From a virus (Duplodnaviria > Heunggongvirae > Uroviricota > Caudoviricetes), in the IMG/VR virus record IMGVR_UViG_3300025066_000017: a stretch of DNA of 64,000 nt. One strand, written 5' to 3'. Positions 1-39,799 of the stretch are shown one piece after another. Made by a program: the position numbers and the translations under genes. Within the stretch, counting starts at the first letter, position 1. The number at the start of each line of letters is the position of its first letter. The notes beneath the pieces are model-generated. The model was not told the DNA's origin, did no database searches, and saw only the letters and a program-made list of their open reading frames with translations.

Positions 1-121
1 CATTCTTCTAATTTAATAATTTTAGTCAAGACATACTGCAGATTTTACCACAATAAATCTTGTAAGGACTTGCCTACCAGGAAGGAAGAAAGACTATACT
101 GTCGAGATAAAGATATAAATA

Positions 122-676
122 TCAATCCCTTGAAATAGTCATACTAACCGTTCCTAATTCCTTATCTCCCCGATGTTTTTGGACATACTCTGCAAAGCAA
201 CCCTCTTTTGTTGCATCCCAAATCTCCTGATGCAACCTCTTCCTCCTTTCGCTCTCCATTGCCCAAGCAGTGAAAACCCAAAAAAACCAAAATACTGAGC
301 AAAATATATATCCTGCAGCGGCTATGATTGGCCCATAGGATACCGATATTTGTTTTGCCCCCCAGACCCTCGGTATATTCCCTAGCAATCTTTCTCTTCG
401 ATATTCCGCAAACGATTCCTCTTTCGCCTCATCCGACTCACATAGACGCCCTAGCCACAATATAAATGTCACGAGGCCAAAAAATACTGCGTTCAATACA
501 ATCAGGTTCCCTGCCCAATCCTGCTTAAACCAAGACAGTGATATCGCCAGTGCTAGAAACATCACATTTAGAAAATACGATAGAAAAAGCGCTCTCCTGC
601 CCCTCGGCGATAAAGAAACCTTAAATTTCCCTCGAGGCACCTCTTTGCGAAAAACTTCTTCGTTCTCAATGCTCAT
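122..676 (-). CDS. Integral membrane protein (about 4 predicted TM helices), translationally coupled downstream of the SPFH gene
   Basis: ORF overlaps the upstream SPFH ORF by 4 nt. Hydrophobic segments LFLSYFLNVMFLALAISL, LIVLNAVFFGLVTFILWLG and IIAAAGYIFCSVFWFFWVFTAWA are present. No recognisable catalytic motif. Confidence 0.5.
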   Translation of the reverse strand: MSIENEEVFRKEVPRGKFKVSLSPRGRRALFLSYFLNVMFLALAISLSWFKQDWAGNLIVLNAVFFGLVTFILWLGRLCESDEAKEESFAEYRRERLLGNIPRVWGAKQISVSYGPIIAAAGYIFCSVFWFFWVFTAWAMESERRKRLHQEIWDATKEGCFAEYVQKHRGDKELGTVSMTISRD

Positions 677-1644
677 CGTATTCTTTTCCCGCCCACACTT
701 GTTGCGGGGCTTTTCCGCAATCTCTTTTTCGACTTTCTGCGCTTTCGCCTCGTTGTCCGACTCAAATCAAAAGTAGGAAGTAATCCCCGACTATTTCCTC
801 CTGTAATAATTACCTTGTCCCCAGGAGCCACTCTCTTGTAGAGAATTTCATTATTATCTAGCTCACGCAGCCGTAAATATTTGTTCGTCAGGGCTGCCCC
901 GATAATCTTAATTCTCTCCGATTGTGCCTTTGCCTCCAAAGCAATAACCTGACGACGCAAAAGAGCAATTCGCTTTCTGTTCTGCATTTTCAATAATTCT
1001 ATCGCTTGTCGAGCTTTTTCCTCTTTGAGCTTGATCTCCTTCTCTCTCCGGCGCTCAACCGCTCTTGTAATCACATCAGGATAATCAAAATTAGAAGCTC
1101 TCACAAAAGGAACTTCCATAGGAGTCCCCTTCAAAGCAATTCTCAACTTGTTATGTATTGCTTTTTGTATCGCCGCACGAGATTCTCTGATCTGCACAGT
1201 TTGATAACTGGAGACAACCTCTCTCGCGATAGATTTCGCTGTTGGCTTTACATATGTATTGTATAATTCTTCAAACGTAAGAACATTCTTTTTGTTCGTA
1301 CCTTTTCTATTAAACACTGCCATGAGTTCTCTGCCACTCTTTGCTTTTAGACGCGCTCTGATTTTTAAAGAGAACTTGAAATTTAAATCATCTGCGCAAA
1401 GAATATTCAACTTAATTGCTCTCATTACCTCCTTGAATTCAACAAGAACAAGCTTGTCCCATTGATACATATTGTGCTTTCCGGGTTGCAAGATTTTACC
1501 CGTTAAACCCGACCGCGTCATCACCATGCCCAGATAACCCGGAGGTACCATTTGGCTACACTTGCACCCAGAGGCTGTAAAGCTCAAAAGGAACAAAAAA
1601 ACCAAGCTCCACTTCATGAATTTTATATTTTCTTTTCTCTTCAT
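673..1644 (-). CDS. SPFH/band-7 (prohibitin/HflKC/flotillin-like) domain lipoprotein
   Basis: N-terminal signal with lipobox-like FTASGC; true start is probably at MKWSLVFLFLL. The C-terminal half has the SPFH coiled-coil region (EKEIKLKEEKARQAIELL...ALEAKAQSERIKIIGAAL...LRLRELDNNEILYKRVAPGDKVIITGG), resembling the ...LRYLEtL...vilp end of band-7 proteins. Confidence 0.65.
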   Translation of the reverse strand: MKRKENIKFMKWSLVFLFLLSFTASGCKCSQMVPPGYLGMVMTRSGLTGKILQPGKHNMYQWDKLVLVEFKEVMRAIKLNILCADDLNFKFSLKIRARLKAKSGRELMAVFNRKGTNKKNVLTFEELYNTYVKPTAKSIAREVVSSYQTVQIRESRAAIQKAIHNKLRIALKGTPMEVPFVRASNFDYPDVITRAVERRREKEIKLKEEKARQAIELLKMQNRKRIALLRRQVIALEAKAQSERIKIIGAALTNKYLRLRELDNNEILYKRVAPGDKVIITGGNSRGLLPTFDLSRTTRRKRRKSKKRLRKSPATSVGGKRIR

Positions 1645-1673
1645 CTTGCCTATCTCCCTAAAGATTTTAAATC

Positions 1674-2102
1674 TTATTTTTGTTTTTTTCTGCGATTAGC
1701 TTCCTTTAAGATTCGTTTGACCTCCTTGTCCACTTCGCTTGTTGGCTTATCCATCTTTCTGAGTAGTGGATCCTTTCTCTTAACCGCATCCTTCTTTAGT
1801 TCCGGAAGAGGAATCTCTTGGGGAGCCGACTGATTCTGTTTGTAAGTCCCATCTTCTTCCACCGAAGGACCAGGATCAACAGGTCTTATCTGCAACATCC
1901 CTATCAAGGCAACACAACCAATAAAGATACCAACTCCCAACAGCCAAGCTCTATGCCTCGATCGTAGACGTGATACTTCATCCATCTCCGTATCAAATGC
2001 AATGAGTATGTTTTTTATGCCGTATGCAGACATAATAACCATAACAATCACCACCAACATTGTTATGAAACCTTCTATATTATTCATAAAACTATCAAGC
2101 AT
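1674..2102 (-). CDS. Small membrane protein with two TM segments and a Lys/Arg-rich C-terminal tail
   Basis: Hydrophobic stretches ITMLVVIVMVIMSAYGI and AWLLGVGIFIGCVALIGML, followed by a charged tail KRILKEANRRKKQK. Function unknown. Confidence 0.45.
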   Translation of the reverse strand: MLDSFMNNIEGFITMLVVIVMVIMSAYGIKNILIAFDTEMDEVSRLRSRHRAWLLGVGIFIGCVALIGMLQIRPVDPGPSVEEDGTYKQNQSAPQEIPLPELKKDAVKRKDPLLRKMDKPTSEVDKEVKRILKEANRRKKQK

Positions 2103-2170
2103 CTACCTTTCTCCTGTTTATCTAAAATCAACACCCATATAAACACAAAACTATAAATAATCAGAACTTT

Positions 2171-2524
2171 CTATTTTTCTGGGTGACCTTTTTTACACAC
2201 ATGGTCCAGAAACTGTTCAACCTCCTTATCCGTCTTTAAGAACGTACCCAATTTTTCTTTTTCTTCAGGCAAATCACATTCTTCTAAATCATCTGGTAAA
2301 ACACCAAACACCTGACGATCAAAAGCAACGCAATTGAATTCTCCTGACACAGAGACAAGAAAGGTGCCATCTTCCATATAACCTTCGATAGTAACTCGAC
2401 GGTTACTTGTTTTTAAGAGATAGAGAATATCTGGTGGATAATCTGCAATCATCTGGATGATCTTTTTTGGACGCGTTGAAACCCAAACCCAAAAAAGATC
2501 ATCCATTTCACGAACTTTAACCAT
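2171..2524 (-). CDS. Hypothetical protein
   Basis: 117-aa ORF colinear with neighbouring minus-strand genes. Composition is coding-like. No motif recognised. Confidence 0.4.
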   Translation of the reverse strand: MVKVREMDDLFWVWVSTRPKKIIQMIADYPPDILYLLKTSNRRVTIEGYMEDGTFLVSVSGEFNCVAFDRQVFGVLPDDLEECDLPEEKEKLGTFLKTDKEVEQFLDHVCKKGHPEK

Positions 2525-2541
2525 CTTTTAACATCCTTTTT

Positions 2542-3213
2542 TTACCAATACGCAAGTGGATTCTTATGGTCTGGATAATTTTCAGATAACCAAGTTTTCA
2601 ACTCTTTATCCTCTCTATTCCGCGCAACCCATATCTTCTCACCCGAATCAACAATCGTATTCTTCGATGTTTCAGGCATCCTATGTATCTCTACCCCTGC
2701 AGGTTCCCCCGGAATTCCTCTATCCATAACACGCAAAAAAGAACGATCCATCCGCAATTCTTCTTCTACACTTTCATCGTCATAGTCTGGATAACATCTT
2801 TCCGATCCATACCTCTGGCTGAGAGATATGTGCGCGGATCTATCGTAAAAAGCTGCTTTGTAGAATATCATGGCTCTCCTTCGTCCATGTTCATCTAATA
2901 AATACGACCAATAAGAATTACCTTCCATTGCTTCCTTTGACCAACCATCCGGAAATTCCACCTCAATAAATAAATCATCAGAACGATCACTGAAAACAAA
3001 CCCCAAACTCTCGAAATGTTTTCTCGAGCTACCATAGAGATGTTTCTTGGGCAATGTCTGCATTCTTGCCTGTTGTCTTTGTCCTCGTGACTCTTGTGCC
3101 TCTATTCCTCCCTCTGTTGTCACGGCTATAATGTTTTCCACATCCTCCCCGGTTCTAGCTCCTGCTAATAAAAAATGCAAAGCTTGCGGAGTTACTTCTT
3201 TTTTCATCTTCAT
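2542..3213 (-). CDS. Hypothetical protein
   Basis: 223-aa ORF with tight spacing to its neighbours. No motif recognised. Confidence 0.45.
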   Translation of the reverse strand: MKMKKEVTPQALHFLLAGARTGEDVENIIAVTTEGGIEAQESRGQRQQARMQTLPKKHLYGSSRKHFESLGFVFSDRSDDLFIEVEFPDGWSKEAMEGNSYWSYLLDEHGRRRAMIFYKAAFYDRSAHISLSQRYGSERCYPDYDDESVEEELRMDRSFLRVMDRGIPGEPAGVEIHRMPETSKNTIVDSGEKIWVARNREDKELKTWLSENYPDHKNPLAYW

Positions 3214-3264
3214 TTTTCTATATCCTTATGTTCACTATTGGAAAAGACCACATAGATTAATGGC

Positions 3265-3687
3265 TTACTTCTCACCTTCCTTAAACCATTCACCTTCTCT
3301 GTGCCATTCACCCCCAGCCCAACCACTAGCCCTACCACCATCCCAAATAGTGGAAACTCCATGACAGCGGCATGGCTTTGTCTTCTCTTTCAACATCCTC
3401 CCAACCCAACCACACTTTTTACACTTACCTGTAACGATATCTGATGGAGGTCTGTAACCTGGGGATGGCCCTATAGATAACATGCTAGGACCATATCCCC
3501 CCGCCCAATCTCCACGCATAACCCCCACTGCATCACCTGTCCCCAACAACTCTGCAACATCATGAGCCAACGCCAACTCCTGTTCAAAGGAACGATTGTG
3601 GTCTTCTTCCAGGAAATCCATCTCTTGCTCCATTGCTTGGCGCATGGTCTCTTCGGTTAGCGACTCTATCTCATCCAGTTTTCCCAT
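3265..3687 (-). CDS. Hypothetical protein with a C-terminal Zn-ribbon-like CxxC...CxC motif
   Basis: Acidic N-terminus, followed by GKCKKCGWVGRMLKEKTKPCRCHG. Confidence 0.45.
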   Translation of the reverse strand: MGKLDEIESLTEETMRQAMEQEMDFLEEDHNRSFEQELALAHDVAELLGTGDAVGVMRGDWAGGYGPSMLSIGPSPGYRPPSDIVTGKCKKCGWVGRMLKEKTKPCRCHGVSTIWDGGRASGWAGGEWHREGEWFKEGEK

Positions 3688-3689
3688 AA

Positions 3690-4541
3690 CTACCTCATAC
3701 TCCTCCTTCTACCAGGAGGGTCCGGAACCAAACCAGAAAAAATCGAATATTTATATTCTGGAAAATTTCTCTCCAACCAATCATTCACGTCTTGGTATCT
3801 AAACCACTCTCCATGAGACCGACAAAATGCAAGATCATCATGTACCTTCTTCTCCGACCAACCCCTGGCCATATGAGGAAACATGAACAATAAACTAAGC
3901 TTCGCAGGACTATTGGTGCGCAAACTCGATAATCGGGACTTCATGCCTCGAGACCTTCCTATTTTGATACGCCCTATACCCTCCGCAAGAACAAAATACA
4001 CCTGCGAACCATAGCACCGTCCCAAAACTCTTGTTTCTGAAGTAATATCAAGAGAACTACGATAAGATTGATCATAAAACCAACGCCCTCCAATATTCAC
4101 AACTGCTGGTTTGGGATGTCTATATTGGCTTCGCACTACATACTCAACCCCATAGCCACAACTGCTCCTCGGACAAGCAACACAGCACCATGTGTATATG
4201 TGTTGTTTGCTTGCAACCATCAATGTTGAATGTCCGTGCATATCCTTTCTTATTGGACAAGCACATCCACCACAAGCTCTGATTGTTGGAGATGTATGGA
4301 GACTCGGTATCTCTGGTACCCAAGTCTCATCGTTTCCTAAACTGTCCTTAACAGTGAAGCTTTCCCCGGGATTCAATAAAGGAGGAATATCTACATACTC
4401 CCCACGATGATTGATCTTGAAAAAACCCAAAGGATTTTCCTCGATTGATTCCGTTTTTATTTTTGGTTCAACCGGAACAATCTCTTCTACCTCAACCATA
4501 TCTATATTCTCAACCCAGACATCTTGGACATAACCGCACAT
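3690..4541 (-). CDS. T5orf172 (MUG113, GIY-YIG superfamily)-like domain protein with Cys-rich N-terminal domain; paralog A
   Basis: C-terminal ...VYFVLAEGIGRIKIGRSRGMKSRLSSLRTNSPAKLSLLFMFPHMARGWSEKKVHDDLAFCRSHGEWFRYQDVNDWLE matches the T5orf172 pattern (IKIG.T.N...R...L......L....F......E..LH..F...R..GEWF). The N-terminal half is Cys-rich (CGGCACP...CCVACPRSSCGYG). Likely start at the internal Met (MVEVEE, about 4499), which removes the 40-nt overlap with the upstream gene. Confidence 0.6.
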   Translation of the reverse strand: MCGYVQDVWVENIDMVEVEEIVPVEPKIKTESIEENPLGFFKINHRGEYVDIPPLLNPGESFTVKDSLGNDETWVPEIPSLHTSPTIRACGGCACPIRKDMHGHSTLMVASKQHIYTWCCVACPRSSCGYGVEYVVRSQYRHPKPAVVNIGGRWFYDQSYRSSLDITSETRVLGRCYGSQVYFVLAEGIGRIKIGRSRGMKSRLSSLRTNSPAKLSLLFMFPHMARGWSEKKVHDDLAFCRSHGEWFRYQDVNDWLERNFPEYKYSIFSGLVPDPPGRRRSMR

Positions 4542-5275
4542 TGAAACTCAGGAAATGTATCCAGTAACCATTCAAATGCAGCATTACTTTCAAACCACTC
4601 ACCATGACTACGATGAACAACCAACTCTTTGTGGATCTTCTTTTCTGTCCATCCCCGCATCCCCTCCATGAAAGAAAAAACGAGGAACAATGGTGTCGGT
4701 GAGTCACCTCGTAAAGAACCCAAGCGTTGATACAATCTAGAACTTCTGCCTATTTTCACTCTCTCGCACTCTTTCGATAAAATAAAGTAAACATGCTCCC
4801 CATGTAGGGATTTACAAAGGAGCCTTTCTCTATCCCTTAGAATCCCATCTCGAAACATACGAGAACTAAGCTTCTCTTCCTTTCCCCAAACATAAAAATT
4901 CTTTTCCTCTCCAGAACAAACATACGACCTACAAGCTGTACTGCAGCGCATCCAGTATTGGTTCCTATGCACAAACCACAGAACTCTGCTTTCTATGGCC
5001 TGCTCCCACAACAATGCTGTGCAACTAGGACATCTATCCGGAACAGGATCCCCGCTGTAAACAGGTGCGTCTGCAATAATCTCATGCTTTCCTATTTTGA
5101 TAACACCTCCCACAGGTATTATCTCTTCTGTCTGCGGAAAGCTAATAGTATCCACATGTGCGATGCTTTTATCTGAAGTTCCTCCCAAGTCTCTAGATAA
5201 ACGATGTGGTGCACAACCTATTCGCGACTCTCGAGAAAGATGGCGACGAACTATCCCATTGAATAAGTAACTCAA
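4502..5275 (-). CDS. T5orf172 (GIY-YIG superfamily)-like domain protein with Cys-rich N-terminal domain; paralog B
   Basis: C-terminus ...VYFILSKECERVKIGRSSRLYQRLGSLRGDSPTPLFLVFSFMEGMRGWTEKKIHKELVVHRSHGEWFESNAAFEWL is colinear with the downstream paralog. N-terminal Cys cluster CPSCTALLW...CSTACRSYVCSGEE. Confidence 0.6.
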   Translation of the reverse strand: MSYLFNGIVRRHLSRESRIGCAPHRLSRDLGGTSDKSIAHVDTISFPQTEEIIPVGGVIKIGKHEIIADAPVYSGDPVPDRCPSCTALLWEQAIESRVLWFVHRNQYWMRCSTACRSYVCSGEEKNFYVWGKEEKLSSRMFRDGILRDRERLLCKSLHGEHVYFILSKECERVKIGRSSRLYQRLGSLRGDSPTPLFLVFSFMEGMRGWTEKKIHKELVVHRSHGEWFESNAAFEWLLDTFPEFQCAVMSKMSGLRI

Positions 5276-5577
5276 GACCCCGATGCTTCTAAATTGGTAA
5301 ACGTCCTCTCCAAGATTTCAAAAGACCTCCAAATCTCCAACTCATCCTCAGTTAAAGGCTTTAGTTTTTCGGCAGGAAAAGATAGATCCATGATTCTCCG
5401 GTGTGCCCACACTAAAACTTCTCCCCCCTCCTCGCTAACACATACATCAAAGCCAGGATTTACTTCGTCTTTCCATGCCGACCTTAAAGCATGTATTACC
5501 TGCACCGGAGAAGTTGTAACATTCACAAACTCAGGAACTTTTTTAGCCGTAAGTCTAATCTCCATCTCTTTCTCCAC
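5272..5577 (-). CDS. Hypothetical protein
   Basis: 101-aa ORF. The palindromic motif lies 7 nt upstream of its start, at 5584-5602. Confidence 0.4.
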   Translation of the reverse strand: MEKEMEIRLTAKKVPEFVNVTTSPVQVIHALRSAWKDEVNPGFDVCVSEEGGEVLVWAHRRIMDLSFPAEKLKPLTEDELEIWRSFEILERTFTNLEASGS

Positions 5578-5583
5578 TTATAA

Positions 5584-5602
5584 ATCTTTAGAGTCTAAAG
5601 AT
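5584..5602. promoter_or_regulatory. Conserved palindrome ATCTTTAGA(G)TCTAAAGAT, copy 1
   Basis: Exact 9-1-9 palindrome. Lies 7 nt upstream of the start of gene 5272-5577 and downstream of gene 5604-6341. Confidence 0.7.
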
Positions 5603-5603
5603 T

Positions 5604-6341
5604 TTACAAATTCAGTTTCGAGTAAATATTCTCCAAGTCATCCGCAATGTACCCACTCGCTTCGTCATCTTCTTCGCGTAAATCTGTAACTCGGGAATCC
5701 AACAACTCACGTAACAAATCGCGCTCTCGTCCCGTTAGCAGATCAAACTGAAGTTCTTTGATAGAACCAATCATTAATCGAGAATAGGAAAACCACAGCT
5801 TTTTCTCTGATTGAGTTAGCTCCCTAAAGTGTCGAGTATCCTCTAACTCTTCCCCTAATGCTTCCTGATAAGCTTCCACCCAATTATTCTGCAGTAGACG
5901 AGCTATTCGATACTTCTGAGACTCAATAATGAAATCCAAACGATCGGGATTCTCCAATACAAATCTGTGATCCTTTGGAAAATTCTCTCGAGGAGGCATA
6001 TCCGACAAAGGATGATTGCCTCGCTCATCCACAAGCCCACAAACATCACATTCATGAACAGTGCTTGCATGAACAGTGCTTGCAGGTCTTAAATTTATAT
6101 CGTGTCTCGTGCAAAGCATTGCTCCACGAGGGCACTCTCTACAAGGATAGGGAGATTGGACCGAACTATACCTCTTCGGATCAGACGTCTCTCCGGTATT
6201 ACCATCATCCACATGCCGCAGAAGCTCAGATTTCCCACCCCCACCACAACTACTACACACCCCCGTCATAATAACGTTATCTGATGTCCGTTTCTCAAAG
6301 CCACACTCGCACTTGAAAATATTACTCACAGAAACCTCCAC
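5604..6341 (-). CDS. Hypothetical Cys-rich protein (Zn-ribbon-like N-terminus)
   Basis: FKCECGF...CSSCGGGG...CRECPRGAMLCTRHD...CDVCG. Contains an in-frame 15-nt tandem duplication (HASTVHASTVH). C-terminal half is acidic and helical. Confidence 0.45.
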   Translation of the reverse strand: MEVSVSNIFKCECGFEKRTSDNVIMTGVCSSCGGGGKSELLRHVDDGNTGETSDPKRYSSVQSPYPCRECPRGAMLCTRHDINLRPASTVHASTVHECDVCGLVDERGNHPLSDMPPRENFPKDHRFVLENPDRLDFIIESQKYRIARLLQNNWVEAYQEALGEELEDTRHFRELTQSEKKLWFSYSRLMIGSIKELQFDLLTGRERDLLRELLDSRVTDLREEDDEASGYIADDLENIYSKLNL

Positions 6342-6550
6342 TACTCACTTACTTGGCGTTCAATGGAATAAATCACACTGTCATCCCTTCTCTCTCCACT
6401 CGGAACACCACACTCCATTGAACAAGAATGACCACCCCCTCCCGTCGCCCAATCTCGTCGCAAACCTTCTCGAATTTTCTCCGCACGCTCTGCTGGAGTC
6501 AAGGCATACCAAGGCTCTAATAACTCTTCCATAATCATTCTTCTGCTCAT
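6341..6550 (-). CDS. Hypothetical small protein
   Basis: 69-aa ORF with a 1-nt start/stop overlap with the downstream gene. Confidence 0.35.
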   Translation of the reverse strand: MSRRMIMEELLEPWYALTPAERAEKIREGLRRDWATGGGGHSCSMECGVPSGERRDDSVIYSIERQVSE

Positions 6551-6558
6551 CTACTCAC

Positions 6559-7020
6559 CTATCCTGGCCAAAGTTCACTTACACGAACACTGAAGTTGTC
6601 CTTGTCCAATTCTACCGTCGTAAAATCATTTCCAAATGGATACCCTTCTCCACCTTCCTTTAAACCCCGCAACCATTCCATGAACTCAGCCTTCCCACCA
6701 GGATTCTCAAAGCGAAAAAAGACTGTATCTCCTTCTCTCACATGTTCTTCTGCTAAGCTCTCCTGAACATCCAAAAGAAGATCCGGATCACGAGATCCAA
6801 TTGCCAACAAAAGCTTTCGCCGATACTCCAATCGATGCACAACATTATCTAAATGAAAATATTCCCTCGTATCCATCGAAAGTTTTAAACAGTTAGTCAC
6901 ATCCTCAAGTGTGTCTATACCTTCTTGCAGTGCCTCTTCTACATCCTCGAGAACACTCTCACCCTCCAGTAATGAAGAAACTAATCTTTGCAACTCTTCA
7001 AAATTCTCCTTCACAACCAA
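6559..7020 (-). CDS. Hypothetical acidic protein
   Basis: 153-aa ORF with coding-like composition. No motif recognised. Confidence 0.45.
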   Translation of the reverse strand: MVVKENFEELQRLVSSLLEGESVLEDVEEALQEGIDTLEDVTNCLKLSMDTREYFHLDNVVHRLEYRRKLLLAIGSRDPDLLLDVQESLAEEHVREGDTVFFRFENPGGKAEFMEWLRGLKEGGEGYPFGNDFTTVELDKDNFSVRVSELWPG

Positions 7021-7066
7021 ACTCCTTTTAACTTATCCAGATCAATAATTAATATCAAAAAAACAA

Positions 7067-7441
7067 CTACTTCATAAAAGAAACTACTATCCAGAAAAGA
7101 ACCGCAATAATAGACCAAAACAATCTCAAAAGAAGAGAAACACCGGTTCCATCCAACCATCCGCCATAAGTTACGTACATTTTTGCTTTTGGCACATTTA
7201 GAGAATCTAACCACAAATACAAAACCCAACCCGAAAACACCAGATTTACAGTCACTAATGTTGTCTTAGCATTTACCCCTCCAAACTTTGCTAAGGAAAC
7301 AAGGCCCATGAGTGACAAAACAACACCACCACCCAATAATCCGAAAAAAGCTCTTATCGAAAGATTCCTCCCCGTCCAGCCCCAGTACACCATTCCAACA
7401 CCCAACACTAAAACAATACAAGACATCGTCTGATGTTCCAT
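7067..7441 (-). CDS. Small integral membrane protein (3-4 TM), holin-like by topology only
   Basis: Almost entirely hydrophobic: IVLVLGVGMVYWGW, FFGLLGGGVVLSLMGLVSLA, LVFSGWVLYLWL, LLLRLFWSIIAVLFWIVVSF. No adjacent lysin was recognised. Confidence 0.45.
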   Translation of the reverse strand: MEHQTMSCIVLVLGVGMVYWGWTGRNLSIRAFFGLLGGGVVLSLMGLVSLAKFGGVNAKTTLVTVNLVFSGWVLYLWLDSLNVPKAKMYVTYGGWLDGTGVSLLLRLFWSIIAVLFWIVVSFMK

Positions 7442-7443
7442 CC

Positions 7444-7665
7444 CTACTTACCCCTATCTTCTTTAAAGAAAGACATTTTTTTCCTTCTTGACCACACCAA
7501 CCATGGCTTCTTACTTAAAGCGTAGTTTGAAAAGTCATGATCATCCGTTATCTCGCAAACCAACTGCAATGGGCACTGTGGAAGAGTTGTTTCAATAGTC
7601 GGAAGCTCCACCTCCACTATGAAAAGACCTGTGTTTGCCCCCAAAAACTCATCCAACTCCCACAA
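7444..7665 (-). CDS. Hypothetical small protein
   Basis: 73-aa ORF with a 2-nt gap to the downstream gene. Confidence 0.3.
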   Translation of the reverse strand: MWELDEFLGANTGLFIVEVELPTIETTLPQCPLQLVCEITDDHDFSNYALSKKPWLVWSRRKKMSFFKEDRGK

Positions 7666-7745
7666 AAACTCTTCACCGTCTTCGTTGATGCTCCTAAAGC
7701 CGTAACGAACCTTCTCTCTATCTCAACACCCATATCCCACCACCC

Positions 7746-8066
7746 CTATCCGTAACGTTGTTCATCTAAAAGATCTTCAAAACAGTCAACCAAACTATCT
7801 AATCCAGCAGTCCACGCTTCTTTTACTTTTCTATGCCCACCCGAACCAAACATCGCAGTCAGTCCCATACTCTCTCTCAAGGACCCAAATAACTCCTGCA
7901 ACGCAATCATCTTCTCATCTACTACACGATCCCACTCCTCCCCAAAATTCTCTCGAATCTCTCCCCACAACACACCCACATGAAAAATGAATGCACCATC
8001 CTTATCTGGCTCACCCAATAAAGATAAAATTTGTTCAAGACTATTTTCCAAACTCACCGTATCCAT
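7746..8066 (-). CDS. Hypothetical protein (first gene of the minus-strand accessory operon)
   Basis: 106-aa ORF. The palindromic motif (variant) lies upstream at 8125-8143. Confidence 0.4.
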   Translation of the reverse strand: MDTVSLENSLEQILSLLGEPDKDGAFIFHVGVLWGEIRENFGEEWDRVVDEKMIALQELFGSLRESMGLTAMFGSGGHRKVKEAWTAGLDSLVDCFEDLLDEQRYG

Positions 8067-9912
8067 ACAAATTCTCCTTTTGTCTTTTTCAAATCAGTAA
8101 AAACACAACTCTTTCATTAACTTCTAAATAAAAAAACTTTAGAGTCTAAAGATTCAACCCAAAAACCAACAAGAGCAGGAACACTCCTCCCAAAAAACAA
8201 TAATCCCCACCGATCTCTAAAAGATCACATCACCCCAAACACTAAAACATCTACCCTCAAACACCACTGCCACAAACAACTAAAGCTAAAATAACCACCC
8301 ACTAAAGCCCCGTTTTATCAAACACCCCTAAAGACCCATGGTTTTATTAACTTGACGCTTCTCATATCCCCAATCTAGAGTCGTCCTCATTGTTGTTATG
8401 TTTGGTAGATGCTTCCCAAAAAAAATCAGCACCCCTCGGATAGGGCGACCCCGGCTTAAACGAAAAAAGCCACCCTAGAGTATGGCAGCTTCTTTCTAGT
8501 TGCTTGTACAAAACCTAACCGAGTAAAGAAAGGAAGCACAAACTACCCGAACAAGATTAGAGTAAGGAGATCGACAAGAAATGTCAAATGTTTTCTTCAA
8601 CTCTGCAAACTCCCTTGCAGAGCCACTTCTCTCTTGCAATGAGAAAGAAATGATGAAGAATACAAATCTCTACAACACTTCTCGCAAAAATCCTCTCCCG
8701 GATGAGAAGGACCCTACCGTTCGATTTGGACCGAATGTATTTCATTGCGACTCTAACCTTGAACAACAATACCACCTAATCCCCACTACCCCCCACCAAT
8801 CATGCAATGACAACGACTCCACCCGCGTGGCCAAAATTGGAGTCAACTATCCAATTGCACATTTCTCTACGATTCTCCAAAAGCAACACTTCATTGGCGA
8901 AGCGCTGCGGAAAATTATACGGCAATTGCATAATGGGCAACTGAGAGGCCCACCCCTCCGATTCTGCAGTACCTCCTACAAAATGACCCTTGCCCCCCGA
9001 GGTCCAGAGACAACAAACAGTTATTCTCCAACAGGCAACACCACACCGTCACCCACATCACATAAACTTTTGTCCTCCAGAAGAAAACCAAACCACGGTG
9101 CGAACAAAAGTAACACCAATACCTCTTCTAGAGCGTTATGTGATCGCATGACACCGAACAACCACCCTGCTTGTGGACGAACGTATCTGCAGACGCCCTC
9201 TGGTAAAAAAAACTGCACACTTATGGGGAAACCACAACTCTGCAAAGAGTTGCTACATAGATAAGGGAACAAGTAACAAAGTGGCTCTTTTTTCGATTAC
9301 ACACGAGAATGATAACGAACTAGACACAAAACAAGTTCGCCCTCATACCTCACCATCCCTAAAAAGACACCCACTCTGATTGTCAGTCTTTGAGTTTCTT
9401 TGGTCATTTCTTCTCCGATAGGTCGTGAAACTCCTCCGGGAGTTACCCCCCAAATCCTATCCTACAAGCTCCTGACAACACCTCTTCAAAACTTATCGAA
9501 CTATCCCGATAGCACAGCACCCGATCTGTACCTCTTTTTTTGCACTGCACCACGAACAGATCAACACCCCCTTTGGCCTTGTATTGGTTGTACCAATCAA
9601 CCCATACGCCTAGCTGAAATCAAGAAGAGAAAACACAACACTAAAACTAGTTTCTCACATAAGTCAGAATCACCTTAAGTCATCCTTAACTTAAATTATC
9701 CCTGCCTTATTTCTTAACTAGTTCTAATCTCCCCTCCCATCAATTCTCTTCTTCTGATTAATTATTCTAATTTAAAATTTAGTGTTTTTTATCAGTTCTG
9801 CTCGGCCTCTCGCTTCGCTCTCTCTATTTCACGCCAAAAAGGGGGGAGTGCGTCTTCTGGATTCCTTGCATTTCGACCTTTTTAGTATTTTTAGACCGGG
9901 CTCAATCAGACC
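8067..9912. other. About 1.8 kb non-coding, strongly A+C-skewed (G-poor) tract between the divergent minus-strand (122-8066) and plus-strand (9913-15291) gene blocks
   Basis: No convincing ORF. Track ORFs here (8581-9264 and others) have non-protein-like N/S/T/P/H composition. The plus strand is nearly devoid of G over long stretches, for example 8160-8340. Contains degenerate half-sites of the palindrome (tctagagtc at about 8376; tctaaaagatc at about 8216) and the AT-rich leader of the + operon. Confidence 0.5.
8125..8143. promoter_or_regulatory. Palindrome variant AACTTTAGAGTCTAAAGAT, copy 2
   Basis: Upstream of the first minus-strand gene (7746-8066), at the edge of the non-coding tract. 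Confidence 0.65.
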
Positions 9913-10479
9913 ATGATGATAAATCGAAAACAAAGAGACGATGATACTATCACCCACATCCTGGCTATTAGTTTCAAGAGAGACAGTGAAACAGAAAGAA
10001 ACTTAAACATGATCCTCCAAGATGGTCCGTACAAAGACTGGGGGGATATGTTTATGAATTTGGCAGAGCTTGCCTTTTTCATTATCGACCGTAGAAAAAA
10101 TGGATATAAATTCTACCTAAGAGAGATTGGTCCCAATCAACCCTTTGTGGAGATACGCCAGCTTCCTGGTCCAGATCCCGATATAGAAAATCTCTTTAGA
10201 CAAGAAGAAGAGACTGATATAAAATTGCTCGACTTTGTTTATAAAGATGATGTGGGTAGAGAGAAATCTCTTTTATCGTTATCCAAGGATGATGAAGACA
10301 ATCCTGTGAATGAGCCTATGCCGGATGGACTATCTCAAGACATAGGTTCACCCGAGAATCTTCTTCTTCAGATCGATCCAGAAACGTTGCTAGGTATGAA
10401 GATATCGTTAGATCTTTCCTGGTATGAAAGAATCTGGTTCAGTTTTCGGCTCATGGTAAAAATAATCTTTAGACTCTAA
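9913..10479 (+). CDS. Hypothetical protein
   Basis: 188-aa ORF, first gene of the plus-strand block. Its stop codon lies inside a palindromic motif copy (10465-10483). Confidence 0.45.
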   Translation: MMINRKQRDDDTITHILAISFKRDSETERNLNMILQDGPYKDWGDMFMNLAELAFFIIDRRKNGYKFYLREIGPNQPFVEIRQLPGPDPDIENLFRQEEETDIKLLDFVYKDDVGREKSLLSLSKDDEDNPVNEPMPDGLSQDIGSPENLLLQIDPETLLGMKISLDLSWYERIWFSFRLMVKIIFRL

Positions 10480-10483
10480 AGAT
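10465..10483. promoter_or_regulatory. Palindrome ATCTTTAGACTCTAAAGAT, copy 3
   Basis: Overlaps the stop of gene 9913-10479. Lies 28 nt upstream of the ATG at 10512. Confidence 0.7.
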
Positions 10484-10511
10484 TATAAAATTCAACATTG
10501 GAGTATGTTCT

Positions 10512-10889
10512 ATGAAACTGATAATGGGTAAAGATTCCATCCAGAAAATGGATGATTGCGTAAAGCTGACAACCCTCAAGAATCATGCGGACTTCATTGG
10601 CACTTCCTGTGCAGTAATGGAGTTCATTGTTCTTCGTCAAGAAGAAGGGTGTCGGCTATGCATTCAAACTCCTCGTGGAGACATCTTGCCTGTGGAGGGA
10701 CTTCCTAAAAATTTATCTTGGAAAAAATCTGGGAAGAGAGAAAGAACTCTTTCAGTTTTTGATAATGTTATCGAGGTTTCTTTTGGCGAAAGTTCTTGTC
10801 TTGAGGTTGAACCAGTTCCGACAAAAACAAGTTGGTGGGTTTATGTTACTAATTGGCTTAGGAAAATATTTAGCCTCAAGAGCAAATAA
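10512..10889 (+). CDS. Hypothetical protein
   Basis: 125-aa ORF. GGAG Shine-Dalgarno-like sequence 8 nt upstream. Preceded by the palindrome. Confidence 0.4.
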   Translation: MKLIMGKDSIQKMDDCVKLTTLKNHADFIGTSCAVMEFIVLRQEEGCRLCIQTPRGDILPVEGLPKNLSWKKSGKRERTLSVFDNVIEVSFGESSCLEVEPVPTKTSWWVYVTNWLRKIFSLKSK

Positions 10890-10904
10890 CAACAGAGTAC
10901 ACAC

Positions 10905-11552
10905 ATGGAACAGCGGCCCTTATTTGCAAACCTTCCTATAATCCCTGCAACAGAGGGCATAGCCTACTATCACAAACACGCCGTATTTAGCTCGTGCGGG
11001 GCATATAGGTGGGTTTTGTTGCGTCGATGGGATAGCGCTATCGGTCGCCTACCCAGAGTCCTCTGGATAGCTCTCAACCCGTCCACTGCTAGTGGCGAAG
11101 AAGATGATCCAACGCTCAGACAAATAGTGAGCTTTTCGAAGCGTGAAGGCTTTGGAAGTCTTATGCTTTGCAATCTATTTGCTTTTTGCTCAACAGACCC
11201 AAAGGCCCTCAATGAAGATGCCATTGATTGTATAGGCGATCTATGTGACGCCTATCTCTATTCATCTGCCGCTTTATGTGATGCTGTGATCGTGGCGTGG
11301 GGAACAAATGTGGAAGGTTATGAAGAAAGGGCAAAGGCTATTGTCTCGCGCTTAAGCAAAACACAGAAAGTGTATTGTCTTGGGAAAACAAAGGATGGAT
11401 TCCCAAAGCATCCACTCTATCTACCCAAAGATGCCCCGCTTAGAATCTTTGCGAGACCAAAAGCAAAATGCCTATCCGCTACTGTTGAATCGGTAGGTAG
11501 AAAATACATACAGAAAATTTCTAGAAGGATACGTTATTCCATACGCAAGTAG
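10905..11552 (+). CDS. DUF1643 family protein
   Basis: AVFSSCGAYRWVLLRRWD...VLWIALNPSTASGEEDDPTLRQIVSFSKREGFGSLMLCNLFAF...DPKAL...VIVAWG...YCLGKTKDGFPKHPLYLPKD matches the hallmark DUF1643 blocks (YRY.L.R.W, MLNPSTAD...DPT, NLFA.R.TDP, AWG, GLTK.G.P.HPLY). Confidence 0.7.
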   Translation: MEQRPLFANLPIIPATEGIAYYHKHAVFSSCGAYRWVLLRRWDSAIGRLPRVLWIALNPSTASGEEDDPTLRQIVSFSKREGFGSLMLCNLFAFCSTDPKALNEDAIDCIGDLCDAYLYSSAALCDAVIVAWGTNVEGYEERAKAIVSRLSKTQKVYCLGKTKDGFPKHPLYLPKDAPLRIFARPKAKCLSATVESVGRKYIQKISRRIRYSIRK

Positions 11553-11563
11553 GAGAAAAGAGA

Positions 11564-11779
11564 ATGAGTTGTTTTCGGTGTGGTTATCATACTTGCAGAT
11601 GCGACGGTCGAAAATCTGTTCCGCCTGAAAAGCACAAAGACTTCACCAAGAATAATCCAAAAAATGAACCAGTCGGAAACTTCACGGGTAGATGCTATCA
11701 TTGTGGGTCTTCTGATTTGTGGACCGACAACCTAGCCTATGGCTGCAACTTTTGTGGTAAATTTCTAGGTGGAAATTAA
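11564..11779 (+). CDS. Small Cys-rich (Zn-ribbon-like) protein
   Basis: CFRCGYHTCRCDG...CYHCGSSDLW...CNFCGKF. Confidence 0.4.
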   Translation: MSCFRCGYHTCRCDGRKSVPPEKHKDFTKNNPKNEPVGNFTGRCYHCGSSDLWTDNLAYGCNFCGKFLGGN

Positions 11780-11782
11780 ATA

Positions 11783-12283
11783 ATGTCTCATTTTCGTTAT
11801 TGGATACTTACTCCCGACAACAAAGTAATAGAAACAACTCGAAAAAAACATCGTGATTGGTGGGCAAAGAACTTCGATGTAGAAGAATCCATAGCTGATA
11901 CTGGTGGTCGCGCTGATAAATGCCCATCTATCATTAAAAAAACTTGTTTTCTCGACGGAATAGTTCGAGTTTCCTCAGTTTTTCTAATGATCGAACATTG
12001 TTCTTATATGGGTGACGTAGTTATCAATGGCGAAAAGAGAGGGGCTCTTTTTGAAACTATGATTTTTGTAGATGCGGACAGTCCTTTTTATGCCACTCTC
12101 AATGAACATCAATGGAGATCTCACACTGTTGGAGAGTCTCTTGGAAACCATAATAAAGCATGTGATTTCGTTATTGCATATATAGAGGCACATGAGATTA
12201 GTAACGGAAACTTGTTTCCCAAAATAGAGGGTAAAGATGTTGTCTACTTACCCAAAAAAGAAAACACGGAGATAGAGCAGTGA
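11783..12283 (+). CDS. Hypothetical protein
   Basis: 166-aa ORF tightly packed with its neighbours (4-nt gap upstream; overlaps the start of the next ORF). Confidence 0.45.
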   Translation: MSHFRYWILTPDNKVIETTRKKHRDWWAKNFDVEESIADTGGRADKCPSIIKKTCFLDGIVRVSSVFLMIEHCSYMGDVVINGEKRGALFETMIFVDADSPFYATLNEHQWRSHTVGESLGNHNKACDFVIAYIEAHEISNGNLFPKIEGKDVVYLPKKENTEIEQ

Positions 12284-37176: not shown

Positions 37177-39288
37177 TTATTTTTCTGCACCACCCTTTCT
37201 CACAACACCCACACCCTTTCCATAAACCTTTACATCGACCTGTTTATTCTTTTTTAGAGTTCTATATATGCTCGTTAATAATCGAAGCATTTTTTCTAAA
37301 CCTGTAGCACTTCCTTTGTCTATAGGCATACTGCCTATAGTGCCATACTTAGCTACTATCTTATGTGTATTTTGAGTAGTGTAAGGAAGTTGACTATAGG
37401 CTTCGGTTACCATTTTCTTCGATTTCTCCAGACCAAAACGTTGAAGCATATCCATTGCCCCTCCTCTTGAAAGTCCTCTGCTTATATCTACTTCTGTTCC
37501 GGACTTCTCATTGTACACATTAAGGAACGCTCCCCACCCATTGCTCATACCAGAGAACATATTGCTAGAACCACTATACGCTTTTGCAAAAGCACCAATC
37601 CCTTGCAAAAGCTTTGTCACCGATCCAGAAATCGCCTGTATGCCTGTTCGCACAGGCCCTGCAATGGCTCTCATTCCATCTCTAATTAGAGGAACGAGGG
37701 TTTTTATATCTTCGAACATTGGTCCCACCATGTGAAGCATCGATTGCTGGATGCTATCAATCGAGAACAATGTATCCAGCTGATTAGAACCAAGATTGGC
37801 CATTCGATCAAAACGTTTTGCCAAAATAGCTGGGAATCCTCCAAACTTCTTCATCGCTGCCCACGCTTCCCTTTCTGCCCTGGGTCGGCTCTCTGCTTTT
37901 TCTTTCTCCTTTATGTCTTGAATCTTTTGTCTCGCTTCTTCAGGCGAAAGCTTTCCTTGCTTCTGCTGCAGATAAACCTTGCTAAACTCTTCTGCCATAT
38001 GGATTGAACCCATCCCCATCCCTTTGAATGCAAGCTTACCCGCATCCGACAAACCTCCTTGCTTGTTTGACCCATACTCACTGCGAAGCTGCTCCATGAT
38101 TGCCATCATGTTGCCACCACCCGCCCCTTGTTCCTGACGCTTCAACACGTCAATGAGACCGGCTCCCTTGCCAAACCCAAAGGCCCTCATCGCAAAGGCT
38201 TGTTGGACTCCTGTGGCTCCCTGGATAGCGGAATGCGCCTGAGCCAAAGCCCCACCCGCAAAACGTCCCCTCATTCCTCCCAGTTGTAGTCGCGCCAACT
38301 CTTCGGCAAATCCCTTGTAGCCATCTTTACCAGGAGTAATCCGTATCTGCTGTTCAGATAGTTGATTAGCCGCCGCGAGAAACTCTCCGATCCTTGCGCG
38401 TTCGAGTCCGGTCTCAACTCCTAAAGCCAAGGATTCAGATATTGTTCGCATCATGGCGTCAGAACCTGCACCCCCTCTCAGGTTCTGGCGAGACATAATG
38501 CCTCCACCAAAAGCTAAGGATTCTTGACCCAATCCTCGCATTAGCTTTAGAGCATTTCTTCCTCCTCTTCTCCCTCCAGTAATTCCCTGTCTAGCCGCAT
38601 TTGCTTGAATCTGCGCAGCTTCCGCAGAGTTATATGCATAGTCCGCTCCGTGAGCATACTTTGCTTTTGGGCCTAAAACCGCGCTTCCTTCCATTCTTGC
38701 CCTGGTTTGCTTCTCATAAGATCCTATCGCTTCTCGGAAAGCAGAAACAAGAAATCCTAAAATACTACCCGCACCAAAGACACCCGCTTTTATTGCATTC
38801 CGGCTAGTCCATCCACCCGCAGTTTTAGCACCTCGGGCCATCCGACCACCAATGCCAACCTTACCCACACCAGGACCACGACCACCACCACCACCTGATT
38901 GATGTCGACGCTTGGATGCAGCATATCTCTCGTCTGCCTTCCTTGCTTTATCAGCACTGTCCATCAATTTGTTAAATTGTTGTTCCGCAGTCCTCGCTTC
39001 TTTTCCCAGAGCCTGAACAGTCTGTTGCATACCACGCAGACCCTGCTGCGCCTGTTGGCCTTGACGACGTACATTTTGCTTCATTCCCTTCCTTGAAGGA
39101 AACATCACTTGACCAAGAACTCCAGAATTACCACCACTACGATCCATATAGCTCATTGTGGTCTGCACAGTTCTCCTGGCAGAACGTAGAAAATTTTGTC
39201 TCGCCATCCTTTCCGACGCTGCGTCTAGCGTCAATATAAGAGGTACTTCAATTCCTTCTTTCGTAGCCATAACAAATCCTCGAATCAA
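37177..39288 (-). CDS. Tail tape measure protein
   Basis: 703 aa, Gly/Ala/Met/Gln-rich with long helical segments. Position is after the tube and chaperone genes and before the baseplate genes. Confidence 0.6.
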   Translation of the reverse strand: MIRGFVMATKEGIEVPLILTLDAASERMARQNFLRSARRTVQTTMSYMDRSGGNSGVLGQVMFPSRKGMKQNVRRQGQQAQQGLRGMQQTVQALGKEARTAEQQFNKLMDSADKARKADERYAASKRRHQSGGGGGRGPGVGKVGIGGRMARGAKTAGGWTSRNAIKAGVFGAGSILGFLVSAFREAIGSYEKQTRARMEGSAVLGPKAKYAHGADYAYNSAEAAQIQANAARQGITGGRRGGRNALKLMRGLGQESLAFGGGIMSRQNLRGGAGSDAMMRTISESLALGVETGLERARIGEFLAAANQLSEQQIRITPGKDGYKGFAEELARLQLGGMRGRFAGGALAQAHSAIQGATGVQQAFAMRAFGFGKGAGLIDVLKRQEQGAGGGNMMAIMEQLRSEYGSNKQGGLSDAGKLAFKGMGMGSIHMAEEFSKVYLQQKQGKLSPEEARQKIQDIKEKEKAESRPRAEREAWAAMKKFGGFPAILAKRFDRMANLGSNQLDTLFSIDSIQQSMLHMVGPMFEDIKTLVPLIRDGMRAIAGPVRTGIQAISGSVTKLLQGIGAFAKAYSGSSNMFSGMSNGWGAFLNVYNEKSGTEVDISRGLSRGGAMDMLQRFGLEKSKKMVTEAYSQLPYTTQNTHKIVAKYGTIGSMPIDKGSATGLEKMLRLLTSIYRTLKKNKQVDVKVYGKGVGVVRKGGAEK

Positions 39289-39292
39289 TAAA

Positions 39293-39311
39293 AACTTTAG
39301 AGTCTAAAGAT
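39293..39311. promoter_or_regulatory. Palindrome variant copy 10 (plus degenerate second copy TTCTTTAGACCCCAAAGAT at 39351-39369)
   Basis: Upstream of the tape measure gene start (39288), downstream of the nuclease gene. Confidence 0.65.
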
Positions 39312-39373
39312 TCAATCCGGAAATATGGAAGAAAGACTAACCAGAATGAATTCTTTAGACCCCAAAGATATAT

Positions 39374-39799
39374 TTAAGCATATTCTACTGCATGACCTTG
39401 ACCGATCATCCAGTAATTAACGTACTTATAGCCTTCACCATCTTCTAGGAAAACATGGATGATATATCTCCCATATTTCCCCGCTTTATCTTTTTCAGAC
39501 CTGATAATGACTTCCTTGCCTTCGATCAAGTCTTGTAAAGCCTCCTTTGCCAGAAGTCCCTTCTCTCTTTCCTCGCCGCGAAGTTCCCATGCATCAATAC
39601 CCGCCAAACGCACGGTCTGATCTCGAAGCCAAACACCAAACCCCAATGAAATATCAAGTTTGACCGTATCTCCATCATATACAGATGTACAAAGCGCTCT
39701 GTATACATAGAAATCATTTTGATCCGGTGGCGATGTTTCGGCATCTCTTTCCCTCTGTGGAAAAATTGTTTGAGATGCGTTTGGCAACAATCCTGACAT
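39374..39799 (-). CDS. Staphylococcal nuclease (SNase/thermonuclease)-like protein
   Basis: VYDGDTVKLDI...VRLAGIDAWELRGEE...KYGRYIIHVF matches the SNase motifs (DGDT...RL.GID.PE plus catalytic Arg/Glu spacing). Confidence 0.7.
   Translation of the reverse strand: MSGLLPNASQTIFPQRERDAETSPPDQNDFYVYRALCTSVYDGDTVKLDISLGFGVWLRDQTVRLAGIDAWELRGEEREKGLLAKEALQDLIEGKEVIIRSEKDKAGKYGRYIIHVFLEDGEGYKYVNYWMIGQGHAVEYA

Follow-up and report, generated by a model that had tools for sequence, protein, structure and literature searches.

Introduction

The divergent early control regions of T4-like and SPO1-like phages sit between oppositely transcribed gene blocks, as does the tract described here, positions 8067-9912 of a 64,000-nucleotide (nt) stretch of DNA from the Caudoviricetes record IMGVR_UViG_3300025066_000017 (that whole stretch is referred to as the window). 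The tract has in common with these regions a copy of a repeated regulatory motif, terminator-like hairpins, leader sequences and small orphan accessory genes, but at 1.85 kb it is far above the typical phage intergenic length, it has no recognisable sigma-70 promoters, and its repeated motif, unlike theirs, is a strict 23-bp palindrome with ~62 copies and no known counterpart. A second comparison is with the GOLLD, ROOL, HK022 put and lambda nut RNAs, which the tract resembles in its kilobase scale, the absence of a credible coding signal, a large surplus of predicted structure and a 3' end resembling a terminator; unlike those RNAs, it matches none of 4,227 Rfam families (E <= 1), has no homologues, and its expression and strand are predicted from folding and position. 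Finally, T4 origins consist of a promoter and a downstream unwinding element that form persistent R-loops (PMC3016281), and the tract is similar to T4 oriF/oriG and to ColE1 RNA II in having a G-rich, C-poor minus-strand stretch beside an A+T-rich segment and near a recurrent regulatory site. It differs from these origins in lacking iterons, a change of skew polarity and an identifiable promoter, in that any unwinding element would be putative, and in that its G-rich zone is a gradient through several kb of coding sequence.

The most plausible explanation of the tract, at a probability of about two in five, makes it a composite intergenic control region that separates two divergent operons of accessory genes and contains a candidate structured RNA read leftward. 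The part nearest the leftward operon, zone A (8067-8340), would be the upstream and leader region of that operon; it has one copy of the palindrome and sits on the crest of a regional bias, with a G-rich sense strand and a C-rich template, which peaks at the operon's 5' end and decays along it. The remainder, zone B (8341-9912), is a structure-rich spacer of ~1.5 kb with a putative leftward transcript, which would be a non-coding RNA of ~0.9-1.4 kb of the leader or antisense type, with three or more stably folded domains and a 3' end at tandem hairpins (8496-8419) just upstream of the leftward control region. This arrangement may insulate or attenuate transcription entering the leftward operon.

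Anatomy and folding of the tract

The tract is bounded by the start codon at 8066 of the minus-strand gene 7746-8066 and by the start at 9913 of the plus-strand gene 9913-10479, so that the placement of a gap at the divergence of a minus-strand and a plus-strand gene block, made in a first-pass annotation of the window, is borne out. At 1,846 nt this is the biggest uncovered stretch of the window, the runner-up being 881 nt, and coding density outside it is 91.7%, in agreement with the annotated figure of more than 90%. The features recognised within the tract are collected in Table 1.

Table 1. Features located within positions 8067-9912 of the window
Feature	Coordinates	Strand	Details
A+T-rich leader of leftward gene 7746-8066	8067-8136	minus	read from sequence
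Copy of genome-wide palindrome	8137-8151		exact CTTTAGAGTCTAAAG
Nearly G-free stretch, A/C-rich on plus (C-poor on minus), crest of regional bias	8152-8340	minus	G 4-7% per 100 nt
Sigma-70-like hexamer pair TTGACG-18-TAGAGT	8352-8381	plus	no statistical weight
Two tandem terminator-like hairpins	8419-8496	minus	stems 8496-8462 and 8447-8430; U8 tail to 8419
Structured domain 1	8550-8763	minus	-75.4 kcal/mol, z -5.59, 0/200 shuffles; plus z -3.92
ORF of 227 aa, doubtful coding status	8581-9264	plus	ATG; AAGGAG 8564-8569
Structured domain 2, long hairpin	8850-8930	minus	z -3.85 (0/200); plus z -1.04 (29/200)
Structured domain 3, rod-like hairpin	9045-9155	minus	-37.9 kcal/mol, z -4.07 (0/200); plus z -2.84
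Small 36-codon ORF	9297-9407	minus	ATG, GGAG 5 nt upstream; weak evidence
Hairpin/inverted repeat closed by two AACTAGTT copies	9645-9723		z -5.25, 0/200 shuffles
T-rich, then mixed, upstream region of gene 9913-10479	9724-9912	plus	no significant fold (z +0.74)

Zone B is distinguished by an excess of predicted secondary structure. Positions 8400-9340 fold at -322 kcal/mol (z -6.9) on the minus strand and at -217 kcal/mol (z -4.3) on the plus strand, compared with z-scores of -2.4 to +0.1 for ten equal-length coding control segments in the same run, and among eleven further segments the genes on the C-rich strand gave z ~0; structure equal to or stronger than that of the tract was seen at two other places, 39.0-39.9 kb and 60.2-61.1 kb of the window. 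The excess persists when sequence is shuffled in blocks of 50 or 100 nt (z -3.4 to -5.5, with 0/40 shuffles as stable) and reaches 8960-9900 as well. A scan in segments of 120 nt gave z < -3 in 4 of ~10 minus-strand segments over 8561-9320, compared with 3-4% across the window (background 3.9%). All three structured domains have the lower z on the minus strand and high pairing probabilities; the predicted fold of domain 1 comprises a 12-bp closing helix around a 13-bp helix and a three-way junction, and that of domain 3 a stack of helices of 6, 9, 12 and 6 bp with helix probabilities of 0.86-0.96.

To the left of these domains, the terminator-like hairpin pair folds at -26.2 kcal/mol with helix probabilities of 0.87; some of its stem pairs are G-U, which on the plus strand turn into A-C mismatches. 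The hairpins would halt leftward transcription out of the tract core. At the other end of the tract, the 8-bp palindrome AACTAGTT occurs at 9645-9652 and 9716-9723, nowhere else in the window and not on the 161-kb companion contig described below, although such a pair has p ~0.1 once any 8-mer palindrome is allowed. The hairpin that it closes lies ~190 nt ahead of gene 9913 and may represent either paired operators or an RNA hairpin.

There do not appear to be any known RNA families or tRNAs in the tract. Covariance-model searching, which the first-pass annotation had proposed as a means of finding structured RNA, matched no Rfam 15 family at gathering score (4,227 families, whole window), and at E <= 1 over 7-11 kb the sole match was a spurious snoRNA. 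Similarly, there were no matches among 50,697 phage records (megablast, blastn), the 7-12 kb segment has no nucleotide relative in INPHARED, and the palindrome was the sole match in the rest of the window and the 161-kb contig (blastn, tblastx, nhmmer). Relatives were also sought in viral contigs using five window proteins (the product of the open reading frame (ORF) at 8581, that of 9913-10479, a DUF1643 protein, MazG and a 944-amino-acid (aa) protein), and the sole match was an unrelated contig of 60% GC; the closest DUF1643 homologue, at 48% identity, sits in an unrelated phage. No diverged copy of the tract was found in the phage, viral-contig or protein collections searched, and an identical tract is present in every assembly carrying the flanking genes. 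The tract's anatomy, composition and structure excess, and its missing periodicity and homologues, are direct observations.

Coding status of the 227-aa open reading frame

The statement in the first-pass annotation that the tract has no credible ORF was too strong, in that the plus-strand ORF 8581-9264 is beyond chance length. Its stop-free run of 232 codons was matched in only 4, 1, 0 and 4 of 5,000 dinucleotide shuffles under four designs, block shuffling included, and stop triplets number 0, 6 and 12 across the three frames of its span. The ORF begins 5 codons past the upstream stop, its first ATG is preceded by AAGGAG, and in five of six listed assemblies it was called as a gene, of 204 or 227 aa, with one identical assembly leaving it uncalled. 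These points favour an alternative in which the core of the tract is an ordinary orphan gene, the first of the rightward block, whose odd composition comes from the C-rich strand, the remainder of the tract being promoter, 5' untranslated region and a long spacer to 9913. This alternative is possible, though doubtful.

The composition of the ORF weighs against coding. Three-base periodicity is absent (chi2 2.1 per 100 codons, p 0.56), at a level equal to that of the non-ORF flanks (2.1 and 2.8), whereas all 13 putative genes have it, with chi2 of 5.3-33.9 per 100 codons. A real gene may have a C-rich sense strand with a poor codon score, as demonstrated by a Pfam-confirmed ComM/Mg-chelatase-like gene on the C-rich strand of the 161-kb contig (skew -0.48, codon score -0.585), but this gene is also periodic (chi2 26.3, with G at.23 in first positions exceeding.06 in third positions, and C at.57 in third positions). 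Strand bias in the putative genes is concentrated at third positions, whereas the codon positions of the ORF are alike (G.17/.16/.16; C.29/.30/.32) and all match the non-coding flanks. The codon score of the ORF, -0.184, lies under those of all 47 window genes (mean 0.134, sd 0.086, minimum -0.128), and its amino-acid composition is that of a random translation of tract DNA, G-initial codons (Gly, Ala, Val, Asp, Glu) making up only 17%.

A word-indexed search of 5.8 billion proteins and an exhaustive one of 1.84 billion representatives matched the protein to itself and to no homologue; the absence is weakened as an argument because the credible neighbour 9913-10479 is also an orphan, with no homologues found. 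The AlphaFold pLDDT of 37.7 does not discriminate, an orphan-gene control reaching only 42.3. The C-rich strand that bears the ORF also has shadow ORFs, as long as 218 aa, facing ORFs that are taken as genes, and the 11-nt spacing from AAGGAG to the ATG is atypical against the 6-8 nt at other genes. On the plus strand, domain 1 overlaps the Shine-Dalgarno sequence and ATG of the ORF, and the Shine-Dalgarno sequence is predicted to be buried in a helix of the plus-strand fold. The ORF would be either fortuitous or very young and unselected.

Transcription of the tract, its direction and any regulatory role are suggested by folding statistics and anatomy, and a number of observations weigh against interpreting the tract as a composite control region with a leftward RNA. 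The length of the ORF (p ~1e-3 or less), the AAGGAG upstream of it and its acceptance by most gene callers are the first of these. No promoter is identifiable on either strand, sigma-70-like matches over 20 kb being at chance (37 compared with 38.1 expected). The available strains are 100% identical over 7921-11898 and so offer no variation for comparisons of covariation, dN/dS or presence and absence. In the first 20 kb, the enrichment of terminator-like sites is modest (23 compared with 16.2 +/- 4.1), and both tract hairpins were picked up under a loose definition but missed by a stricter terminator scan. The structure excess is present on both strands, the choice of strand resting on a consistent difference in z, and the strongest structure among the control segments (60.2-61.1 kb, z -8.2) is inside a long ORF taken as a gene, so that structure does not exclude coding.

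The genome-wide palindrome and a companion contig

The palindrome variant noted within the tract by the first-pass annotation is present as one exact copy (Table 1), and belongs to a family with the 15-nt core CTTTAGA[C/G]TCTAAAG and the 23-bp consensus AAATCTTTAGASTCTAAAGATTT, past which there is no conservation. There are 16 exact copies in the window compared with 0.09 expected, at 5586, 8137, 10467, 13094, 18738, 23331, 25532, 30987, 34807, 39295, 42612, 45816, 53941, 56154, 57779 and 62380. All but one of these are intergenic, mostly 5-71 nt from the next leftward gene start, and the copy in the tract is 71 nt upstream of the start of the leftward gene 7746-8066. The spacing to the start is often too short for a separate promoter, and the palindrome looks like an element acting on DNA or as an RNA hairpin, and not like a classical promoter; it is probably a protein-recognised punctuation or regulatory element.

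Searching viral contigs for the palindrome plus one flanking AT on each side identified a companion, IMGVR_UViG_3300025133_000029 (161,002 bp; here the 161-kb contig), which holds 46 copies, giving a total of ~62, nearly all intergenic and near gene starts. The contig has no nucleotide or protein similarity to the window. However, the tetranucleotide signature of its first 128 kb correlates with that of the window at r 0.96-0.97, equal to the correlation of one half of the window with the other, and the strong strand skew of the window is also seen in those 128 kb. In gene content, the 161-kb contig has a DnaB-like helicase with an intein, a family A DNA polymerase and other helicases, and the window is without such replication functions. 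The simplest explanation is that the window and the 161-kb contig are probably complementary parts of one jumbo-phage genome of ~245 kb or more, although no join was recovered.

The source of the window is an uncultured marine phage, and several marine metagenome assemblies carry its sequence, the longest being an 84,017-bp ENA contig. Portal, tail sheath, baseplate J-like and tail proteins are encoded on the minus strand from ~15 to 64 kb, with the portal only ~36% identical to those of Herelleviridae, and small orphan accessory genes occupy 0-15 kb in blocks. Assemblies from different samples all agree at 100% identity over 7921-11898, a segment that takes in the whole tract. To the left of this segment (7442-7920) strains are ~9% diverged or replaced, with the boundary inside gene 7746-8066, and strains are mosaic outside the identical segment, as compared over 7442-7920 and from 11899 onward.

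Strand asymmetry and cytosine-poor operon ends

The first-pass annotation had described the plus strand of the tract as almost purely A/C/T. This description is correct for zone A, in which G is 6.2%, and incorrect for the remaining 8341-9912, in which G is 15.8%. Nor is G depletion a trait specific to the tract, because the adjoining coding block 1-8066 is equally G-poor (14.2%, compared with 14.4% for the tract as a whole). The crest of zone A extends into the coding sequence of 7700-8066 (G 8.2%), and third codon positions on the plus strand are G-poor in the left, right and late gene blocks alike. For the first gene of the leftward operon, 7746-8066, the sense GC skew is 0.59 over the whole gene and reaches 0.80 in third positions, compared with third-position skews of 0.24-0.64 in genes further along the left block, so that skew climbs toward the tract; similar skew steps follow other palindrome-containing intergenic regions, e.g. 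at gene 37177-39288, the bias being highest at the 5' ends of operons. This combination of a third-position bias across the window and a rise toward the tract indicates that the tract sits on the crest of a window-wide strand asymmetry.

A more extreme form of the same bias was observed on the 161-kb contig, where over ~1.2 kb of 131.2-132.6 kb the plus strand has G of 1.5-5% and C of 44-49%. The genes of this G-free island are on the minus strand (ORFs 130576-131397 and 131666-132328); their sense skew reaches 0.82, C falls as low as 1% at third positions and the proteins are rich in Gly, Val, Leu, Glu and Arg. The island lies at the 5' end of a leftward operon and adjoins a copy of the palindrome. 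Almost cytosine-free coding sequence is very unusual. One extended proposal is that zone B encodes a new leftward structured RNA of ~1 kb peculiar to this phage, and that zone A and the island on the 161-kb contig mark operon 5' ends whose almost cytosine-free transcripts might serve R-loop priming of replication or evade cytidine-directed host defence, examples of which are chain-terminating ddhCTP and C-specific nucleases. Taken as a whole, this proposal is unlikely.

Composition also bears on the possibility that the tract is a decayed remnant of former leftward genes, retaining the strand composition of the left block and having no current function. The minus-strand composition of the tract (A.25, C.14, G.29, T.32) is close to that of left-block third positions (A.27, C.11, G.29, T.34), and the surrounding accessory region is mosaic between strains, both of which would be in keeping with decay. 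This explanation is nonetheless improbable: minus-strand ORFs are no longer than chance (the longest being 91 codons between stops), there is no tblastx similarity to the window or the 161-kb contig, the structure excess and organised hairpins would be unexpected from decay, and the tract is identical in every assembly recovered. Reassignment of the stop codons TAG, TGA and TAA was considered and rejected, since it opened no long minus-strand frame and so offers no rescue; the best recoded frame, of 195 codons, reads through TAG where the CTAAAG words supply TAGs.

A proposed replication origin

The first-pass annotation had offered a replication origin as one function for the tract, an assignment that the evidence does not support, and a transcriptional switch region with possible non-coding RNA as another, with which the upstream palindrome, the two terminator-like hairpins and the ~1.5 kb of structure excess are compatible. 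Its proposed analysis of cumulative GC skew shows a fall both before and after the tract, with a change of slope only, tracking gene orientation, and no inflection of sign; plus-strand third-position skew is likewise negative in the left, right and late blocks without a sign change at the tract. The annotation had named two findings that would tell jointly against its view, a skew minimum elsewhere and a conserved protein encoded by the tract; the first was seen, the skew extremum within this incomplete genome sequence lying outside the tract, but no conserved protein was found there.

A minority alternative is an origin of the R-loop type, specifically in zone A, in which a G-rich and almost C-free leftward transcript would remain paired with the C-rich template and prime DNA synthesis. 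The low G of the nearly G-free stretch corresponds to 4-7% C in a leftward transcript, the A+T-rich 8067-8136 lies downstream of that stretch in the leftward direction, oriF/oriG of T4 provide a precedent (PMC3016281), and the more extreme G-free island of the 161-kb contig adjoins a repeat array at which skew flips independently of gene strand. Against this, C-run (G-cluster) enrichment is not significant (9 compared with 6.8, p 0.09), the skew keeps its sign and changes gradually across ~8 kb of coding sequence, as a gradient of mutational or transcription-linked origin might, the replication genes are on the other contig, no promoter was identified, and iterons, long repeats and DnaA-like boxes are all missing from the tract. 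An R-loop origin here is accordingly rated a slim prospect. A+T-rich stretches (70% A+T at 9701-9800, and 8067-8136 as well) are not specific to origins.

A bidirectional origin of the iteron/DnaA type is not supported, with iterons, DnaA boxes and a skew sign change all lacking: the repeat search of the tract gave only two-copy families of 11-26 nt at 73-100% identity, and TTATCCACA with <=1 mismatch is absent from 8067-9912, its sole match in 7-11 kb being at 7033.

If any place in these sequences is an origin, the repeat array at 132.6-132.93 kb of the 161-kb contig would be a much better candidate than the tract. It is a dense array of direct and inverted repeats with units of 32-69 nt and inverted arms of up to 48 nt at 92-100% complementarity, adjoining the palindrome; at this point skew polarity flips with gene strand constant, and the tetranucleotide signature also changes. 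The array may be a replication origin, a site of packaging or a junction between domains.

Beyond the array, 133-161 kb of the contig is a 28-kb domain with a higher G+C of 50-55% and a different tetranucleotide signature (r 0.54). The motif GTAAATGCTYTGCTTTTTTATAC has ~50 copies on the contig, most in this domain, and is absent from the window; its copies lie a few tens of nt upstream of a Shine-Dalgarno sequence and start codon, and it looks like a phage-specific promoter class. The promoter-like motif GTAAATGC is abundant on the 161-kb contig and absent from the tract.

Flanking sequence and other features of the window

At the left edge of the tract, gene 7746-8066 has a Shine-Dalgarno AAGGAG at 8079-8074 on the minus strand, 7 nt ahead of its ATG at 8066, other window genes having GGAG or GAGG 6-8 nt 5' of the start. 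The repeat words listed in the first-pass annotation were found where it placed them, with CTAAAG in the same orientation at 8280, 8302 and 8328, TCTAAAAGATC at 8216 and tctagagtc at 8374; as evidence they carry little weight, the count of CTAAAG/CTTTAG not being significant relative to shuffles (p ~0.1). The small minus-strand ORF within zone B would encode a partly hydrophobic peptide, MTKETQRLTIRVGVFLGMVRYEGELVLCLVRYHSRV, for which the evidence is weak because Shine-Dalgarno-like words are common on the G-rich minus strand.

At the right edge, 9724-9912 contains no palindrome copy and no Shine-Dalgarno sequence before the ATG at 9913. The first rightward gene thus lacks a Shine-Dalgarno-like sequence, unlike most window genes, and its actual start, or the way its translation is initiated, may not be as annotated.

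Elsewhere in the window, positions 60200-61140, inside a giant gene of >2,046 aa, have a z of -8.2 over 941 nt, stronger than the tract, and the intergenic 39281-39560, with two palindrome copies, has a z of -8.7 in a 120-nt segment. The portal protein (50022-53888, minus strand) is 1,288 aa long with portal homology only at residues ~120-270 and 1060-1230, and the insert of ~790 aa between these parts could be an intein or a fused domain. In the structural module, a 502-aa protein (54020-55528, minus strand) has both of the Fe/Mn superoxide dismutase domains of Pfam (E 1.4e-24 and 8.8e-9).

Implications

As an intergenic control region the tract would be ordinary in kind, and its value is in what it pointed to. 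It led to an apparently at least 245-kb marine jumbo phage with ~62 copies of one strict 23-bp palindrome, to operon 5' ends whose sense strands are nearly cytosine-free, and to a kilobase-scale, strongly folding segment without a coding signature. A leftward RNA, if real, would be a novel large non-coding RNA of phages, and cytosine-free leaders, if adaptive, would point to a new means by which a phage protects or makes use of the transcripts that it produces first.

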